Shown here in pieces: positions 51,266 through 62,502 of a stretch of 64,000 nt of DNA (position 1 is the first letter of the stretch; every line of letters starts with the position of its first letter). Origin of the DNA: an uncultured Fidelibacterota bacterium (GTDB taxonomy: Bacteria; Fidelibacterota; Marinisomatia; Marinisomatales; UBA1611); assembly GCA_902611135.1 (NCBI GenBank), contig CACLYL010000002.1:167-64166 (forward strand), in the 5' to 3' direction. The position numbers and the translations under genes were made by a program. The notes below the pieces were generated by a model, which was not told the DNA's origin, made no database searches, and worked only from the letters and a program-made list of their open reading frames with translations.

Positions 51266-51799
51266 ATGAAACTGTTAAGAATAATCCTTCTACTTTATTT
51301 ATTTATAATTAATGCCTGTGAGGAGGCTATATATAAATTTGATAATGTCAATGATCCATTTAATATGGATCTTGAGCCTCCAGCTTTATTTTTTCATCCT
51401 AGTGAGATAAAAACATTCGTAAATAGTAATGATTCACTAGAAGTTTACGGATATAAATTAGATTCCTCAGCTGCGGCTCATTTAGAGATCATTTATGATT
51501 ATGGAAGTATAATTGTGGATTCAGTATCTCCGGGGCCATTTTTTCAAAATTCAAATGATCCAATTGAGGTAGTTGTTGAAGATGGAAATAAAATTCATAT
51601 TTATTTATATTACCTTCCTGACCTAATGATGGATCAAAATACAGGAGGGACGTGGTCATTAGCAAAAATTTATTTTTCTACAACAAATGCTGCAGGCACA
51701 TATGGTCTTGAATTTGGTTCCAATACAAAATTAAGAAACGCAGAAAATGATTCAGTAAGAATAAATACTTTTGGTATAGGTTCAATCCATGTTCAATAA
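51266..51799 (+). CDS. Small lipoprotein with a cohesin-like beta-sandwich pattern
   Basis: 177 aa with lipobox LFIINAC. The strand pattern LEVYGYKLDSSAAAHLEIIYDYGSIIVDSVSPGPFF ... NKIHIYLYY ... GTWSLAKIYFSTTNAAGTYGLEFGS ... NAENDSVRINTFGIGSIHV parallels type I cohesins (..CDFVYSYDPNVLEIIEIEPGDII ... IVFLF ... GVFATIVAKV..APNG.SVIKF ... FFDGGVNV). This rests on recall, not an HMM hit. Confidence 0.45.
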   Translation: MKLLRIILLLYLFIINACEEAIYKFDNVNDPFNMDLEPPALFFHPSEIKTFVNSNDSLEVYGYKLDSSAAAHLEIIYDYGSIIVDSVSPGPFFQNSNDPIEVVVEDGNKIHIYLYYLPDLMMDQNTGGTWSLAKIYFSTTNAAGTYGLEFGSNTKLRNAENDSVRINTFGIGSIHVQ

Positions 51800-54700
51800 C
51801 ATATTTATTTTTAAATGTCTGTTACTTTTAATTCTTAATGCAGTCCAAGGTCAAGAGTGTTTTGATTTTGAATTAGCTGAATCTGATTTTCCATTTGATC
51901 ATCTAGCAGATTTTACTTCTGATGAAGATATTGGTCAAAATTGGGGATTAGGGACACTTGGTTCAGGGGAAATCGGTGCTTTAGGTGGGAACGATTTTGC
52001 ATATAAATTAACGTTGCTTAATCCTGCGTTAATCTATGTAACAACATGTGATGCGGAGACAGATGTTGATGTTGAAATTGCAATTTTCAATAGCTGTGAT
52101 TCAACGGACTGGTTATTGTATCAAGATGATTCTAACCTCCCTCTATATTATCCTGATGGAACTTCAGAGCAGTATGACTTTCAATGTATTTCTGGTTATG
52201 AGGAGAATCCCACCTATGCAAATATGCTACCTCGTTTAGAACTAGAAAGTGGTTCATATTATATTGTTGTAAGTGATCGGGGGTATTCAGGAACTGTAAA
52301 AACTTACATTGGTTATTCCTTATTGGTTGACTCTACAACCACAAATGAGGATTATACTGAAATTAATTACCATTTTAGCGAGGGTGTGTTTGGGGGAGAA
52401 TATCAGGATGTTTACAATGGCAATGGTATCCCATTGGAAATAAATGATTATAGTATATCAATTAATCCAAACGGTGGTGACGCCGATGAAGCATACATAA
52501 CCTCCCTAACCACAATGTCAGGAGATCTTCTATCGATTGGAGAATCAAGCATTAAAGTTAATATAAATTACCCAGATACTCCAACAGGGGTAGAGGAAGT
52601 AACAATTGGACCAGCGTCTGTATCATCAATTTTTAATAGTGTGGGAATTCCTTTATTAAATGTTGAGGGAATTACCATTGAACTAGTTGATGCTTTAAGT
52701 CCTAGAATAACAAATTCACAGCCTAGCAATAATGAAATTGGAATTCCAGTTGATGAAAATATAATTTTAACATTCTCAGAAAATGTTCAATATGATGATA
52801 GTGAAATAAATAATGTGAATGCACAAAATTGTTTCAGAATTGAAAGTGTAGAAACAAATGAAAATCTAGATTTTTCTATAACAAATCTAGATGATACAAT
52901 TTTTACATTAAATCCTATAAATAATTTTCCGGATTATACATATATAAGACTAATAATCCTTGAAACAATAACAGATACAAACGATAATCAATTTGCATCG
53001 GATACAATTATGTTCCGAACAGAAGACATCTCACCACCAATAATTAATCAAAGTTTACTTGCATCAACAAATGAATTTATAACGATTAGCTTTAATGAAG
53101 GTGTCTACTCCTCTGAGCAAGGATCAGGCGCAATAAATTCTTCTGATTTCAGCTTGATATTTGATCCAAATGGTGGGAATTGTACCAATGCAAACTTATC
53201 GGCAATAACTAAAATAGATGGAGAGGAGCTAGAGGGGGGTGAATCCTCTGCAAAATTCTTTTTACAGTTAGCTGGTTCGCCGAGTGGTGTAGAGACTTTT
53301 TCGTTAAGCCCAACAAATAGCTCTTCAATTTTTGATTTTGAAGGAAATGGGATGTTAAGTATTTCATCTACTGATAATTTAACTTTGTTTGCATCGGCTA
53401 TAATGGAAACGTTTTATTTAGCAGATAGTAATGATTATTTAGATTTAACCTTTTCAATAGGCGTTTATGGGGATGAAAATCAATTCCAACCTGTCTCATT
53501 GTCCGACCTTAATTTGACATTAAACTCAAATGGAAGTTCGGTATTAACAGGACAAATAGTAAGCTTAAGTAATATTAATAATAATCCGCTTCTGGGTGGT
53601 GAAGAGACTATACGATTATATTTAAATTTCAATGAACAACCATCGGGAGTTGAGTTTATAGAAATTTCTCCAACTAGTAATGGAAGTTTATTTAGTATTT
53701 CAGGAGTTCCATTGCCTGTAACTGAAAATTCTGGACCTATTAATTTAATAGATCAAAGGCCACCTCAGGTGGATACAAACATATCAGATGGTTCAGAAAA
53801 CATAATAGAAAGTGAGCCCCTAAGAATTACATTTAGTGAAAATATTTATGATCCTGAAACTGGAAACTTAATGACATCGGAGCAATTAGGGGCTTATATT
53901 ACATTAAGAGATGATGCCTCTGAGGCAGATATTCCTTTTTTAGTAGACTACTCTAATCCACCAGACCTTTACATTATTCCTGAGCAAGATTTTGATAGTG
54001 ATCAAATAGTATACTATGCTTTTAATGGGTTACTTCAAGATGAGGCGGGGAACCTAGCTGATTTTAACTTTAACGCAACTTTTATGGTTAGAGATTATTT
54101 GCCTCCTACAGTTGACTCTTCAATTCTTGCTTTAGATAATTCATATATCGATATAATTTTTGATGATGGTATTTATGGCGCAGTAGAGTTTGACGGGCAA
54201 AATTTTGTAGGGATTTCACCGGTTGATAGAAATGATTTTTCCGTTGAGTTTGAGCCAAATGGTAGTGAAATAAACATTGTTAATATTGCCAGCATTACAA
54301 GGACAGATAGTAACTTTTTGATTGGGGGAGAGAATGAGATTAGAGTTAATTTTGAATATAATGGGACTCCAAATGGGGACGAGACACTGCAACTAATTGT
54401 TCAGCCTGGGGTTACAATGTATGATGAAATTGGTAATCAGCTTACCGATACCGTAACCATCATGAATCCAGACACTCTGTATGATATTTTAGCACCCACT
54501 ATTGATATGGTTTCTTTGTCTGTAGATTCATTTATTACTTTAATGGAAGATAGGCCAATAATGTTCACTTTTAATGAAAAAATTGATTCGATTGAATTTA
54601 ATATAAGCTCAACGGTTTTAGATTCAATTAACTATGAATACGAGATGGCCAGCTCTGATTCATCAATAGAAATTACCTTAAAACCTCCCTTTGTCAGTTA

Positions 54701-55631
54701 TGATCATATAAGTATTAATTTTTCATATTTAGAGGATTTGGCTGGATTGTCAACTGTTGATATAACTTATACGTATAAAACTCCAATACTTGGGGATTAT
54801 GATTTTGATAATGCAATTAATTATCACGATCTATGGGATTTAGTTGAAAATTGGGAATTAAATAATATGGATTATGAGATCGGTCCAATTTCTGGTCAGG
54901 TACCTCATGTCATTCCTCAATTGGATAGTAAATTCGATATAGAAGATGGAATGGCTTTTGTTCAAATGTGGTCATGGTATCAGAAAGAATTTGGTGAAAT
55001 AATCGAGGATTCTACCCAAGTTGGGCGCATTTTAAATACAAAAACAAGCAAAAATAATTATATAGTATACATAGACAGTAATATTGTTGCTGGGCAATTG
55101 ACTTTCACCTATGACTCTGGAATAAAACCTTTACAATTTTTAAGCTATCCTCAAAAAAATGATAATTTATTTTTAGAATTTCATAAATCAATAGAAGGAT
55201 TTTCGAAAATAGAATTTGCTAGACATGATCATCAAAAAAAGGATTCTATATTATTTGATTTGAATCAGCACAGCTATGTAAAAATATTTTATAATTTAGA
55301 ATCTTCAACAAAATTAATCGAAAGAAAAGGAATGATTAATTACAAAAATAATCTAGTCCCTGAAAAAATCAAGTTATATCCAGCTTATCCAAACCCGTTT
55401 AATCCTTCGACTACTTTAAAGTTTGATATTCCTTTTAATTTGGATAATAATATTTTTTTAGAAGTATTCGATGTGCGTGGTAGTAGGGTAGATTATTTAG
55501 ATTTAGGTTTGATGAGCCCAGGTACTCATAAAGTAAAATGGGATGGACGACGACATTCCTCAGGCGTATATATTATTAAATTAATAATAGGGTTCTCAAG
55601 GCAGACACAAAAGTTACTATTGATAAAATAA
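51789..55631 (+). CDS. Giant secreted multi-Ig-domain (SbsA/Big_5-like) surface protein with a dockerin-like segment and a T9SS C-terminal sorting domain
   Basis: 1280 aa with a signal peptide.
- The N-terminal domain is PPC-like.
- There are at least five Big_5-type domain starts: SPRITNSQPSNNEIGIPVDENIILTFSENV, ISPPIINQS, RPPQVDTNISDGSE ... LRITFSENI, LPPTVDSS and LAPTIDMVS.
- There are four copies of an approximately 90-aa module.
- A dockerin-like segment reads GDYDFDNAINYHDLWDLV ... LDSKFDIEDGMAFVQMW.
- The C-terminus reads YPAYPNPFNPSTTLKFDI ... GVYIIKL. Confidence 0.7.
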   Translation: MFNNIFIFKCLLLLILNAVQGQECFDFELAESDFPFDHLADFTSDEDIGQNWGLGTLGSGEIGALGGNDFAYKLTLLNPALIYVTTCDAETDVDVEIAIFNSCDSTDWLLYQDDSNLPLYYPDGTSEQYDFQCISGYEENPTYANMLPRLELESGSYYIVVSDRGYSGTVKTYIGYSLLVDSTTTNEDYTEINYHFSEGVFGGEYQDVYNGNGIPLEINDYSISINPNGGDADEAYITSLTTMSGDLLSIGESSIKVNINYPDTPTGVEEVTIGPASVSSIFNSVGIPLLNVEGITIELVDALSPRITNSQPSNNEIGIPVDENIILTFSENVQYDDSEINNVNAQNCFRIESVETNENLDFSITNLDDTIFTLNPINNFPDYTYIRLIILETITDTNDNQFASDTIMFRTEDISPPIINQSLLASTNEFITISFNEGVYSSEQGSGAINSSDFSLIFDPNGGNCTNANLSAITKIDGEELEGGESSAKFFLQLAGSPSGVETFSLSPTNSSSIFDFEGNGMLSISSTDNLTLFASAIMETFYLADSNDYLDLTFSIGVYGDENQFQPVSLSDLNLTLNSNGSSVLTGQIVSLSNINNNPLLGGEETIRLYLNFNEQPSGVEFIEISPTSNGSLFSISGVPLPVTENSGPINLIDQRPPQVDTNISDGSENIIESEPLRITFSENIYDPETGNLMTSEQLGAYITLRDDASEADIPFLVDYSNPPDLYIIPEQDFDSDQIVYYAFNGLLQDEAGNLADFNFNATFMVRDYLPPTVDSSILALDNSYIDIIFDDGIYGAVEFDGQNFVGISPVDRNDFSVEFEPNGSEINIVNIASITRTDSNFLIGGENEIRVNFEYNGTPNGDETLQLIVQPGVTMYDEIGNQLTDTVTIMNPDTLYDILAPTIDMVSLSVDSFITLMEDRPIMFTFNEKIDSIEFNISSTVLDSINYEYEMASSDSSIEITLKPPFVSYDHISINFSYLEDLAGLSTVDITYTYKTPILGDYDFDNAINYHDLWDLVENWELNNMDYEIGPISGQVPHVIPQLDSKFDIEDGMAFVQMWSWYQKEFGEIIEDSTQVGRILNTKTSKNNYIVYIDSNIVAGQLTFTYDSGIKPLQFLSYPQKNDNLFLEFHKSIEGFSKIEFARHDHQKKDSILFDLNQHSYVKIFYNLESSTKLIERKGMINYKNNLVPEKIKLYPAYPNPFNPSTTLKFDIPFNLDNNIFLEVFDVRGSRVDYLDLGLMSPGTHKVKWDGRRHSSGVYIIKLIIGFSRQTQKLLLIK

Positions 55632-58328: not shown

Positions 58329-58970
58329 ATGTTAGATAAAACTAAATATTTAATTATCTTTTCTTTATTTAACGCTATCTTGTTTTCTCAGAGAATTCAG
58401 TTGTTTACGATGGCAGATGATATCTTTACATCTTCTAATCGTTTTACTGTCAAAAACACTAAAGTGATATTTTGGGAAGATAAAGTTGTTCTCATGACTG
58501 TACCAATTAAAAACCTTGTTGAAGTTAGGTATGCTGAAACTTCATACTCTTATATTGGGAAGCCATTTGTTTTCTCAGGTTCAGTTGTTCTGGGAATCTT
58601 GTCAGGTCTAGGCATTGCAGGGAATCTAAAAGTACTTGATTTTAATCAAGATGATGCGTACGATGATGAGTTTCTAAGTATTCTTGGTTTAGGTTTAGCC
58701 TCTTATTTTACAGGAAAATTTTTAAATCTTATTGGAGCTCGCTTTGGTCGAGATATTGTATACAAAGATTTTGATCACCTTGACGTTACTACTAAAAAAT
58801 TAATACTCGAATCAATTAGCTTGGATATGCAAAAAAAAGAAAAAGAGAGCCGGTTTGTTTATGGCCCTGAAGGAAAAAGAACGGAGCTTAAGTTTTCATG
58901 GGAAGGAAAAAGACCTTGGAAAAAAAAGTATAAACCAAAAAAGAAAATTATTCGGTTTTCTTTCTTTTGA
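58329..58970 (+). CDS. Hypothetical membrane protein
   Basis: 213 aa with a signal/anchor, two central TM segments and a Lys-rich tail. Confidence 0.45.
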   Translation: MLDKTKYLIIFSLFNAILFSQRIQLFTMADDIFTSSNRFTVKNTKVIFWEDKVVLMTVPIKNLVEVRYAETSYSYIGKPFVFSGSVVLGILSGLGIAGNLKVLDFNQDDAYDDEFLSILGLGLASYFTGKFLNLIGARFGRDIVYKDFDHLDVTTKKLILESISLDMQKKEKESRFVYGPEGKRTELKFSWEGKRPWKKKYKPKKKIIRFSFF

Positions 58971-58974
58971 CCAA

Positions 58975-59793
58975 ATGTTATGTATTCTTACTGCTTTAAA
59001 AGCAGAATCTGAACCATTAATCAACTTTTTTAAACTTAAGAAGGATAGCTCATTCGATTTTCCCGTTTTCAGTAATAATGATATAATACTTGTAGCAACA
59101 GGTGTTGGGGGCAAAAATATATCCAAAAGAATCACAACTGTTCACAATCAATTTAAACGTTTCAATTTAATATTTATAAATATAGGAATTGCTGGAGGAA
59201 ACTCGAAGAATTCTAAAATTAGTAAGTGTTATTCAATAAATAAGATAATGGATGAGAGGGAAAGAAAAACGTATTATCCTGAAATTTTTATTAAACATCC
59301 TTTCAATGAGAAAAAAATAAAAACATTTAAAAGTGTTGTAAAGAGTATTAATGAAGATTTCGATTTTTTAATTGACATGGAATCTTTCGATATCTTCAAA
59401 GTATGTTCGAAAATAGTTCCAATTCATCGAATAGTATTTTTAAAGGTAGTATCCGATTATGTAAATGAAAATTTTCAAAAATTGAACGCTACTTTTATAA
59501 GTGAATTAATTTCCAATAATCTGATTAAATTTAAAATCTACTTTGATAGCTTGATTCAATTTTCAAAATTAAGAAGCAATATTTTAAATAATGATGATGT
59601 TACATGGCTAAAAGAAATTAATAAAGTCCTTTCTTTAACTGAGTCTCAAAAAACAATTATTTTCAATAAGGTAAAAGGATTTAGGTTAAGAAAAAAAGAT
59701 GAAAAATTGCCCTCTTTTGCAATAAAACCCCCTAATTCAAAAAGTAATCAGAAAGAAACTTTAAAAGAAATAAATGATCAATTATCAATCTAA
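58975..59793 (+). CDS. Nucleoside phosphorylase/nucleosidase-fold (PNP_UDP_1, MTA/5'-deoxyadenosine nucleosidase-like) protein with an unknown C-terminal extension
   Basis: ATG 58975 lies 5 nt after the previous stop. ILTALKAESEPL ... ILVATGVGGKN ... INIGIAGG ... LIDMESFDIF follows the MtnN/Pfs-type strand-loop signature (A..E, GiGk, G.aG, DME). The last approximately 90 aa are unassigned. Confidence 0.5.
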   Translation: MLCILTALKAESEPLINFFKLKKDSSFDFPVFSNNDIILVATGVGGKNISKRITTVHNQFKRFNLIFINIGIAGGNSKNSKISKCYSINKIMDERERKTYYPEIFIKHPFNEKKIKTFKSVVKSINEDFDFLIDMESFDIFKVCSKIVPIHRIVFLKVVSDYVNENFQKLNATFISELISNNLIKFKIYFDSLIQFSKLRSNILNNDDVTWLKEINKVLSLTESQKTIIFNKVKGFRLRKKDEKLPSFAIKPPNSKSNQKETLKEINDQLSI

Positions 59794-60882: not shown

Positions 60883-60984
60883 ATGTCGTTGAAGATGATT
60901 GTTTTTATAGTGGTAGTCGTTTTTATTGTAGGTTCATTATTTCTTGCGCTGTGGTATAGAATGAATGAAGATAAATTTGAATAG
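60883..60984 (+). CDS. Possible small single-TM peptide (33 aa)
   Basis: MSLKMIVFIVVVVFIVGSLFLALWYRMNEDKFE is preceded by AAAGGTG 4 nt upstream. It is too short to validate, and its 3' end overlaps the next gene's start. Confidence 0.25.
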   Translation: MSLKMIVFIVVVVFIVGSLFLALWYRMNEDKFE

Positions 60985-62502
60985 AGCTATACTCTGCTTA
61001 TTTCTTTTTGGAAAAATTATTGCAAAGGAAGATTTTAGTCTAAAAGATTTAAATCCAAGCTCAGAATATTTTAATGAATTTATTGGGCCAAGCTATTTCA
61101 GTAACAATATTGTCATTATCTACTTTGGGCATGAGTATTGAGGCGCGTGTCGGAGCAGGTTCGGCTTTTTAATTCTGTCCATATGGATTTACTATCTATG
61201 AATATTAATGATGTTAAAATCATTGGAGTTGGGAAAGATGAACATAGTGATCATTTAAGTGGAATGATAGAAGGAAAAATTTTACCTTGGGTTGCCGATT
61301 CATCTGATAATAGTTTTCCTGTTTGGGAAATCTTTGGTGCAACTCAAAGAAGTACTTACTTTTTAAATAGAGCAGGAGAATTACTTTATGAAACAAATAT
61401 TACATCTATTGATCCTGAAAACCCTACAGATTATGAAACATTTATTAACTTAATTCTAAATTTCAGATCCTCTGATGGACCCTCCGTTTTAAGAGTACCC
61501 GAAGATTTTAGTTTGATTCAGGTAGCAATAAATGAGGCTAATGAGGGAGATCTTATTTTAATTAGTCCTGGAGTTTATTTTGAAAATATTAGCTTACTTG
61601 ATAAAAATTTAACGATTGCATCACTGATTTATACTGGTTTTGATAGTGATCTAATAGGTGAAACTATTTTGGATGGAGAAGGAGACGGGTCTGTAATTAC
61701 TATTGATGGAGGGCAGGATCAATCCACTTTATTGGTAGGTTTAACTATTCAAAATGGTTCGTCAAATGAAGCGGGAGGTGATATTCTAATTGAAAATTCT
61801 AATCCGGTTATAAGCAGAAATACTATCCGAAATAACCATTCAGGTGATTGCGGGGGTAAAGGTGCAGGCATAGCAATTCTTGAAAATTCCTATCCGCATA
61901 TTTTTTCGAATACTATTCATAGCAATACGGTATCTGGGATTTGTGATTGTGAATGTTATTTTGGAGGAGGTATCTATGTTGATGAAAGTTCATGGCCAAT
62001 CATCGGCGGTTCCATTATTCTCAGTAATAAACTATATGACAATCATAGTGATATTGGATACCAGTTATACAGAGATCACAATGACATAGATACAACAAAT
62101 CGAGTGCCAATATATGCGCATTACAACTTTTTTGAAAATTGTCCACCTGATTTCCCAACAGATGTTTACCCAGTAAATGGATGGGACTTAGGAAACTGCC
62201 AGGCTTATTTATCTTTTCATGATGAAAATATTGAAATTACTCCCCGTATTGTTTTACCAAGTTATCCTAACCCATTTAACTCTAGTACAACTATAAAGAT
62301 CACGTCTAAAAAAGTAGGTACTTTTAATATAAAAATTTATAATTTATTAGGAGAAAATGTTGATAGTTATTCAAAAATCAAACTGAAAAAAGGTGTAAAT
62401 CAGTTTAATTGGAAGCCTGATCAGCAAGTTAGTAGAATTTATTTTTTTCAAATTGAGCTAAACAATGCTATTTATAAACAAAAGGTTCTTTTTATTAAAT
62501 AA
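60965..62502 (+). CDS. Secreted redoxin (thioredoxin-fold) / right-handed beta-helix / T9SS-CTD fusion protein, interrupted by an in-frame TGA (61139-61141) and a 1-nt frame change in a T5 run (61166-61170)
   Basis: ATG 60965 gives signal peptide MKINLNRAILCLFLFGKIIA, then FSLKDLNPSSEYF ... NIVIIYFGHEY-TGA-GACRSRFG. Homology continues in the frame of tracked ORF 61138 (LFNSVHMDLL ... VKIIGVGKDEH ... PWVADSS ... STYFLNRAGELL). PbH1 repeats follow (NPVISRNTIRNN ... HIFSNTIHSN), and then SYPNPFNSSTTIKI. Confidence 0.55.
61152..61168 (+). promoter_or_regulatory. Short hairpin 11 nt downstream of the in-frame TGA; SECIS-like candidate
   Basis: GGAGC (61152-61156) can pair with GCUUU (61164-61168) through 3 Watson-Crick and 2 G-U pairs, leaving loop AGGUUCG. 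It lies inside a 24-nt stretch of about 70% G+C in an AT-rich genome. The stem is weak and was drawn by eye only. Confidence 0.25.

Follow-up and report, generated by a model that had tools for sequence, protein, structure and literature searches.

Does an in-frame TGA within a secreted redox protein gene end that protein, mark its decay or encode selenocysteine (Sec)? This question is raised by a 64,000-nucleotide (nt) stretch of contig CACLYL010000002.1 from an uncultured Fidelibacterota bacterium, referred to here as the window. A frame that opens with ATG 60965 on the forward strand runs for 58 codons (MKINLNRAILCLFLFGKIIAKEDFSLKDLNPSSEYFNEFIGPSYFSNNIVIIYFGHEY) and is closed by TGA 61139-61141. 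The codons directly 3' of it are GGC GCG TGT, and the redoxin homology is carried on in the -1 frame by a second open reading frame (ORF) of 454 codons (61138..62502, +). An earlier sequence-only reading of the window had described this layout, which was borne out, and had offered either a selenoprotein gene or a decaying gene as its explanation. The gene belongs to the NCBIfam family NF053656 ("TUGYCR motif thioredoxin fold (seleno)protein"), its TGA is very probably an ancestral Sec codon followed by a hairpin resembling a selenocysteine insertion sequence (SECIS), and the frame is broken immediately past that hairpin, where one G is missing. The explanation preferred here combines this selenoprotein gene and its mechanism with a real deletion in the window, at a probability of about 0.5.

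Conservation of the TGA and family membership

To examine the TGA, a single genome of each GTDB species was scanned with two peptide patterns taken from well 3' of that codon, the Sec column being excluded. The scan yielded 38 loci, almost all from Candidatus Neomarinimicrobiota/Marinimicrobia (SAR406). Of these, 37 extend across the site, and in every one of them the domain occupies one frame with a single internal stop, at 34-64% identity; the second stop shown by L038 is that gene's own terminator. With the window and a close relative (L001) added to these 37 species-level genomes, the Sec column holds an in-frame TGA in 39 of 39 sequences, which is what became of the homologue alignment that the sequence-only reading had proposed as a check. 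Seven of the window's 37 long ORFs end in TGA as an ordinary stop, which shows that the standard code is in use and no reassignment is involved. This pattern argues very strongly for an ancestral Sec codon rather than a mutated cysteine codon. A scan of the window for TGA-split ORF pairs gave no further selenoprotein candidate.

One base added between the T5 run (61166-61170) and A61171 gives a single protein of 512 amino acids (aa), as had been proposed for a redoxin/beta-helix fusion ending in a sorting domain of the type IX secretion system (T9SS). The gene is laid out as follows, residues being numbered on the repaired protein.

60965..61138, +: 5' part, codons 1-58, an ORF conserved in frame in 37 species
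60965-61027, +: predicted signal peptide, residues ~1-21, by inspection only (MKINLNR, hydrophobic core, IIA/KE)
61139..61141, +: predicted Sec-UGA, codon 59, first position of the U-G-A-C redox motif (TGA in frame in 39/39)
61142..61150, +: Gly60, Ala61 and Cys62 (GGC GCG TGT), Cys62 being the resolving cysteine of UxxC
61151..61169, +: bacterial SECIS-like hairpin within the coding sequence (CDS), codons Arg63-Leu69 (pairing conservation, covariation, RNAalifold)
61166..61171, +: frame break, a T5 run then A; relatives have TTTTT-G-AATTC, and the G of Leu69 TTG is absent between 61170 and 61171
61171..61461, +: remaining thioredoxin-fold (TUGYCR redoxin) domain, read at -1 with respect to the ATG (NF053656 match through residue 166)
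61516..62031, +: predicted right-handed beta-helix region, residues ~185-356 (PF13229 at 25.6 bits, cut-off 25.9; weak TIGR04247)
62263..62502, +: predicted T9SS type A C-terminal sorting domain, residues 434-509 (TIGR04183, PF18962), with stop TAA 62500-62502

Codons 1-58 hold the first strand region of the thioredoxin-fold domain, which ends in ...IVIIYFGHEY. The segment 61142..61150 doubles as the 5' part of the spacer between UGA and hairpin, and nt 61151 brings the spacer to the core stem to 10 nt. Predicted peptides 3' of the UGA include ILPWVADSSDNSFPVWEIFGATQR and STYFLNR, and the Sec-spanning peptide would be GHEY-U-GACR.

Membership of NF053656 is clear from the match of the repaired protein over residues 22-166, which scores 121.5 bits with T as the added base; the domain repaired with G, as in the relatives, reaches 127.9 bits (curated cut-off 100 bits). 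The match is to a domain of 146 positions and crosses both the TGA and the frame break, and the model was also matched by all 23 homologues tested. The active-site motif is Y-U-G-A-C-R in the window and U-[GNSA]-x-C-[RQ] in the 37 species, the residue preceding U in the examined homologues being Y, S or G, not T, and the TG of the Cys62 codon (TGY) is invariant in the homologue alignment. Thus, the window gene shares with the catalogued family the whole domain and the U-G-x-C-R position, where Sec is usual, but has Y-U-G-A-C-R instead of T-U-G-Y-C-R, is fused to a beta-helix and a T9SS domain, and is frameshifted. The family is already catalogued by NCBI, and the window locus is a new, damaged member of it.

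Public databases hold the family in a distorted form. An exhaustive HMMER search of 1.84 billion representatives returned only 77 clusters, most of which start just past the TGA or carry W there; truncated or W-bearing entries are what gene finders produce from a Sec codon. The one true cysteine homologue (P0081) has CGIC aligned on UGAC at 39% identity (E = 3e-32), and the TGA does sit at the first-cysteine position, as had been supposed, since it aligns with this cysteine and with the first one of the CEPC motif in ResA. In the public entries P0002, P0005, P0067, P0083, P0087, P0102, P0104 and P0105 the Sec-TGA is called Trp (e.g., HEYWGACR), presumably by a gene finder choosing genetic code 4 on short contigs, and most other entries begin at the first Met after the TGA. 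Three further public proteins from outside the window (P0054, P0075 and P0091; 612-1796 aa) contain four to seven copies of the redoxin domain in tandem. P0054, the only one of the three that was read, has Asp at the Sec/Cys position (motif GRAT-D-T/P-A-C-R), so the first redox residue has been replaced in this repeat-protein branch of the family.

Public calls for relatives that start at an internal Met (MNINDV..., e.g., P0001) could also be taken as a sign of two genes, namely a secreted 58-aa peptide with a true TGA stop and a second protein starting at TTG 61138, ATG 61183 or ATG 61198. Such calls are truncation artefacts of standard gene finders, several database entries read through the TGA as W, and one protein-family model spans it; moreover, a downstream-only product would have neither the redox motif nor the signal peptide that a T9SS cargo needs. 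Two separate genes at this site are scarcely credible.

A covarying hairpin within the coding sequence

Directly 3' of the UGA lies a stem-loop with the covariation expected of a SECIS in a selenoprotein gene. Its core stem (61152-61156/61164-61168) begins 10-11 nt past the TGA and carries an apical GGUU at 61158-61161, and the consensus after U-x-x-C is N5-[C/A]GGUU[C/U]G-N5'. Among 34 distinct sequences, 87.9% of the cells of an 8-pair helix (window 61151-61158/61162-61169) are paired, compared with only 32-61% after a shift of the partners by 1-3 columns. Covariation scores 0.422, whereas shuffles give 0.265 +/- 0.019 and not one of 500 reaches the observed value; double-sided changes occur at three pairs (AU/CG/GC, GC/AU/CG and CG/UA). 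Independently, RNAalifold returned from 34 homologues the 5-pair core 61152-61156/61164-61168, which is the hairpin (loop AGGUUCG) that the sequence-only reading had drawn. Together with the NF053656 match and the unbroken TGA column, this covariation supports the earlier suggestion of a UxxC selenoprotein with a SECIS-like hairpin.

Pairing is kept in part through changes to the protein sequence. A compensatory change in L033 turns AGC...GGC into GCU...GAG, replacing Ser with Ala and Gly with Glu, and another in L036 gives CAC...GUG, replacing Ser with His and the neighbouring Phe with Val. Codon use follows the same course: CGG (27/34) and TTC (30/34) are near-fixed in the hairpin, whereas AGA and TTT dominate genome-wide. 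In the window, the 24-mer 61142-61165 is 75% G+C (18/24; previously put at about 70%), the window mean being 32%, and it is the sole one among 63,977 24-mers with 18/24. The rarity of its codons, noted earlier, agrees with the genome codon shares: of all Arg codons, 2% are CGG (0.76 per 1000), while GCG accounts for 7% of the Ala codons and GGC for 10% of those for Gly.

In a published model, bacterial SECIS elements have a loop of 3-9 nt, a stem of 4-16 bp, a G in the first two loop positions, a spacing of 16-37 nt and a minimum free energy (MFE) of -7.5 kcal/mol or lower (PMC13188914). Loop size, stem length and loop G all fit this model, and the spacing from UGA to loop, 15 nt (window) to 17 nt (consensus), is borderline at the short end of the model's 16-37 nt. 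The energy threshold is reached by 15 of the 39 sequences, the window not among them, as computed on a segment possibly shorter than that of the model's authors. Bacterial SECIS elements of the E. coli fdhF type are likewise stem-loops inside the CDS directly 3' of the UGA, with a small apical loop that shows G then G/U and an upper stem of 5-8 bp. The minimal fdhF element comprises 17 nt at 11 nt from the UGA, and the family hairpin is similar in geometry. However, the family hairpin is very short, its energy is often weaker than -7.5 kcal/mol, and its near-invariant SGGUUYG is family-specific.

In the proposed mechanism, UGA 61139 would be recoded to Sec, and the hairpin 61151-61169, lying 10-11 nt 3' inside the frame, would present its GGUU loop to SelB carrying Sec-tRNA(Sec). 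Such decoding is suggested by the conserved UGA and the covarying hairpin. Several observations weigh against it. The fold of 61139-61200 that the sequence-only reading had put forward as a check came out no better than shuffles (z = +0.68) for the single sequence, so the evidence for the hairpin is comparative. The window hairpin, at -2.8 kcal/mol for a 22-nt element, is the weakest of the 39; a synonymous C-to-A change at 61157 opens its two upper pairs, and this change is tolerated, since seven other species carry A at the position. Rfam gave no relevant match at gathering or permissive thresholds. Furthermore, no selA, selB, selD or tRNA-Sec was found in the 64-kb window or in 40-46 fetched loci, a small part of any genome, using ARAGORN for tRNA-Sec and tblastn with E. 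coli SelA, SelB and SelD; the only hint for the phylum in the literature available is three SAR406 single-cell genomes with an "orphan" SelD (PMC5029168). A covariance model of the UGA plus hairpin identified no second such element in the window.

The machinery genes, which were not seen in the sequence covered, along with at least one clearly fragmented gene in the window (the hemW-like gene described below), would also suit an old decaying gene, in which a Cys codon (TGT/TGC) turned into TGA and a frameshift followed, so that the TGA is a plain stop and everything downstream untranslated. This account is contradicted by the TGA in 39/39 sequences over 34-98% identity with the frame conserved on both sides, by the covarying hairpin, by the 3' 450 codons, whose ratio of non-synonymous to synonymous polymorphism (pN/pS) is 0.27-0.35 and not about 1, and by the restriction of the sole cysteine form to a distant homologue. 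As the TGA is ancestral across the family, the change from TGT/TGC to TGA is rejected; what survives of the decay suggested earlier is the frameshift, as a private 1-nt deletion. Decay as a whole is given practically no credence.

The missing G downstream of the hairpin

For the frame break, seven close relatives were compared with the window at 94-98% nucleotide identity. L043, L044 and L047 (two MEGAHIT contigs and one scaffold, from other metagenome assemblies) read TTTTTGAATTC and are in frame, and the window reads TTTTTAATTC at 61166-61171. The relatives have TTG here, and the missing base is therefore the G of Leu69, not a T: one base does join the frames, as had been proposed, but it is not the sixth T then named. 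The frame 3' of the Sec codon is thus interrupted in the window copy by a 1-nt deletion at 61170/61171, and the unrepaired sequence reaches a stop 18 codons past the Sec codon, which leaves a product of only 77 residues. Elsewhere, base loss at this site was seen only in L045, where the T-run is one shorter (T4G); of the other three Pilon-polished relatives, two have T5G and one T6G (L002).

These four relatives (L001, L002, L045 and L046, ENA contigs labelled _pilon, same species cluster) are apparently long-read assemblies. Compared with the window, they have between 3 and 47 indels in 11-13 kb, which lie mostly in homopolymer runs and split many genes; alone, these contigs are unsuited to judging whether a gene is intact.

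The quality of the window sequence and the state of the gene both bear on the nature of the loss. Relative to the three short-read contigs, the missing G is the only indel. Four short-read contigs (4.6 kb) differ from the window by only two indels, the missing G and one in the fragmented hemW-like gene, and L045 (12.8 kb) by three others, at all of which the window is intact or supported across species. Because the other indels, bar the hemW-like one, are attributable to the relatives, the window sequence appears to be accurate. The 1.5-kb gene contains no other stop or frameshift, and its pN/pS against L045 and L001 is 0.07-0.35, with 0.04-0.42 in the neighbouring genes. The private substitutions of the window lineage (13 synonymous to 13 non-synonymous) are like those of other lineages. 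Selection on the gene is still purifying, and the gene was functional until recently.

The same data can be read in a second way: gene and mechanism are unchanged, the absence of the G is an error of the consensus or the assembly, and the organism has an intact gene that is expressed as a 512-aa selenoprotein. A lone lesion in an otherwise intact gene under purifying selection is what an error would leave; the site ends a T5 run, at which two of the four long-read relatives have erred (T4 in L045, T6 in L002); this site is intact in five of the seven close relatives, including 3/3 short-read contigs of the species cluster, as it is in each of the other 37 species; and no relaxed selection was found on the window lineage (Fisher p 0.06, 0.40). 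All of this speaks against a real deletion. On the other side, no other indel error attributable to the window was seen in the ~17 kb compared with relatives, and it is the G that is lost, the length of the T-run being unchanged. An error thus remains a serious contender, though short of an even chance.

A real deletion is hinted at by the accuracy of the rest of the sequence and by a lesion that is not a homopolymer-length change. It is further hinted at by a hairpin that is the weakest of 39, a nonsense codon in L043 and the broken hemW-like gene. In L043 (MEGAHIT, 97% identical), the TGA, the hairpin and otherwise the frame are intact, and a GAA-to-TAA change turns Glu180 into a stop (L043 1424-1426, window 61501-61503); this is either a second knock-out allele of the species cluster, arisen independently, or a G misread as T. 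On balance, a real and very recent loss-of-function allele, in which the G of Leu69 TTG would have been lost immediately 3' of the hairpin, has an even chance and is slightly likelier than a consensus error.

A real deletion might still allow some full-length selenoprotein if it were offset by -1 slippage on C-UUU-UUA (61165-61171), so that the transcript would be recoded twice. With a slip of -1 at UUA, the A is read twice and the ancestral ...G-F-L-N-S-V... is restored, heptamers of the U-UUU-UUA type are known slippery sites, and a weak AU-rich hairpin lies 10 nt downstream (61182-61200). However, the heptamer is non-canonical, its first base being C rather than fitting X XXY YYZ. The downstream hairpin is weak (-3.7 kcal/mol, centroid) and is also present in relatives that have no need to shift. 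The arrangement is found in no other family member, relatives having TTTTTG, and nothing in the data is indicative of a programmed -1 frameshift. Dual recoding is very improbable, and the loss-of-function allele remains preferred.

Other broken or overlapping genes occur in the window. The hemW-like radical SAM gene (heme chaperone/coproporphyrinogen oxidase family; 15689-16700, -) is in at least four pieces in different frames, including one of 77 aa (TIGR00539 positions 16-91) and one of 99 aa (positions 204-296), and among its breaks one interrupts the CxxxCxxC motif and another coincides with an A10 run (15787). Its relatives (75-90% identity) are likewise represented only by fragments in the database, so it may be an old pseudogene common to the clade. 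Upstream of the selenoprotein gene, ORFs 58329-58970 (213 aa, no assigned function) and 58861-59793 (~310 aa, weakly nucleosidase-like), both on the forward strand, overlap by ~110 nt in different frames within a Lys-rich stretch rich in A runs; the overlap is also present in L003, and an A run one base shorter in L045 fuses the pair into one ORF of 487 aa. The A8 run at 58920 was considered as a second homopolymer frameshift of the window and rejected, as the two ORFs also occur in ten other species, represented by short-read or unspecified metagenome-assembled genomes and one single-cell genome.

A thioredoxin-fold protein predicted to be exported, and its setting

The intended product would be a pre-protein of ~512 aa. 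Its signal peptide would precede a TlpA/ResA-like domain, a thiol-disulfide oxidoreductase acting outside the cytoplasm, with Sec59 in place of the attacking cysteine of CxxC (U-G-A-C); next would come a right-handed beta-helix and finally a sorting domain, by which the enzyme would be exported to the medium or the cell surface. When a profile of 23 family members was searched against the PDB, it matched ResA/TlpA-type chains over ~125 residues (E = 2e-4 to 6e-4), with the active sites aligned and the U-x-x-C of the family on C-E-P-C of ResA. Like ResA/TlpA (PDB 1st9, 3c73), the family has the thioredoxin fold, with the redox pair where helix 1 begins, and a predicted location outside the cytoplasm; the similarity is remote, however, Sec stands for the attacking cysteine, and ResA has no extra domains. 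The WCxxC context of the ResA type becomes (H/D)(E/Q/A)(Y/S/G)-U-G-x-C-R in the window family, for which oxidoreductase activity is predicted. Pfam Thioredoxin_8 matched only below threshold, and an AlphaFold model of homologue P0002, built on a 14-sequence alignment, was unusable (pLDDT 39).

Both T9SS sorting-domain models are passed, TIGR04183 at 31.7 bits (cut-off 23) and PF18962 at 28.6 bits (cut-off 27). With T9SS type A cargo the window protein shares the C-terminal sorting domain and, by inspection, a signal peptide, and from these matches export is predicted. PF13229 is on record for homologue P0008 and for the L002 and L045 products, and in about 20 species the beta-helix region is kept at 53-63% identity. 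The same 507-531-aa architecture is found in about 20 species; in others the domain stands alone or has different partners. At 51789-55631 (+) lies the gene for a second predicted T9SS cargo, of 1280 aa, whose L001/L045 counterpart has Big_5 and Por_Secre_tail on record; thus, other T9SS substrates are encoded near the selenoprotein locus.

Gene order is also conserved in about 20 species, running from an aminotransferase through two small genes, an SPL-like radical SAM gene and a 33-aa ORF to the selenoprotein gene, and then to genes of 258, 85 and 113 aa. In the window, the 33-aa hydrophobic ORF (MSLKMIVFIVVVVFIVGSLFLALWYRMNEDKFE; 60883-60984, +) shares its last 20 nt, from the start codon on, with the selenoprotein gene. 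Nine loci of other species have it in the equivalent position at 67-94% identity, and its product is possibly a small membrane protein whose translation is coupled to that of the selenoprotein.

UxxC selenoprotein families of the Trx-like and Prx-like kind have been described from marine metagenomes (Zhang and Gladyshev, 2008; PMC2398784). Those families are likewise marine bacterial thioredoxin-fold proteins with a UxxC centre and a SECIS just 3' of it. Most of them have many Cys homologues, whereas in the window family Cys forms are very rare (one seen). A search of the literature available found no paper that mentions the NF053656 model, its motif or a Sec-containing T9SS cargo.

For annotation, TGA 61139-61141 should be recorded as Sec. 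Standard gene finders cut the family at the UGA or write Trp there, so that most entries are N-truncated or W-bearing, and as a result a predicted exported selenoenzyme, conserved and syntenic in about 20 SAR406 species, is largely invisible in annotations. The interest of the locus lies at the level of the family, none of it being specific to the window: Sec is used almost exclusively, the predicted site of action is extracytoplasmic or on the surface, and a minimal SECIS is packed into the CDS so tightly that the choice of amino acids (CRSRFGFLN) is dictated by it. The family also points to the use of selenium by an abundant marine lineage in places outside the cytoplasm, perhaps at the cell surface. 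More tentatively, the intact gene may encode a surface or extracellular selenoenzyme delivered by the T9SS, which would be core and syntenic in many SAR406/Marinimicrobia species and essentially always Sec-containing, with the window and L043 alleles as natural knock-outs segregating in one species. If true, this would be the first described T9SS cargo with selenocysteine, and the supply of selenium in the ocean would be tied directly to the redox chemistry that an abundant deep-ocean lineage carries out outside its cells.

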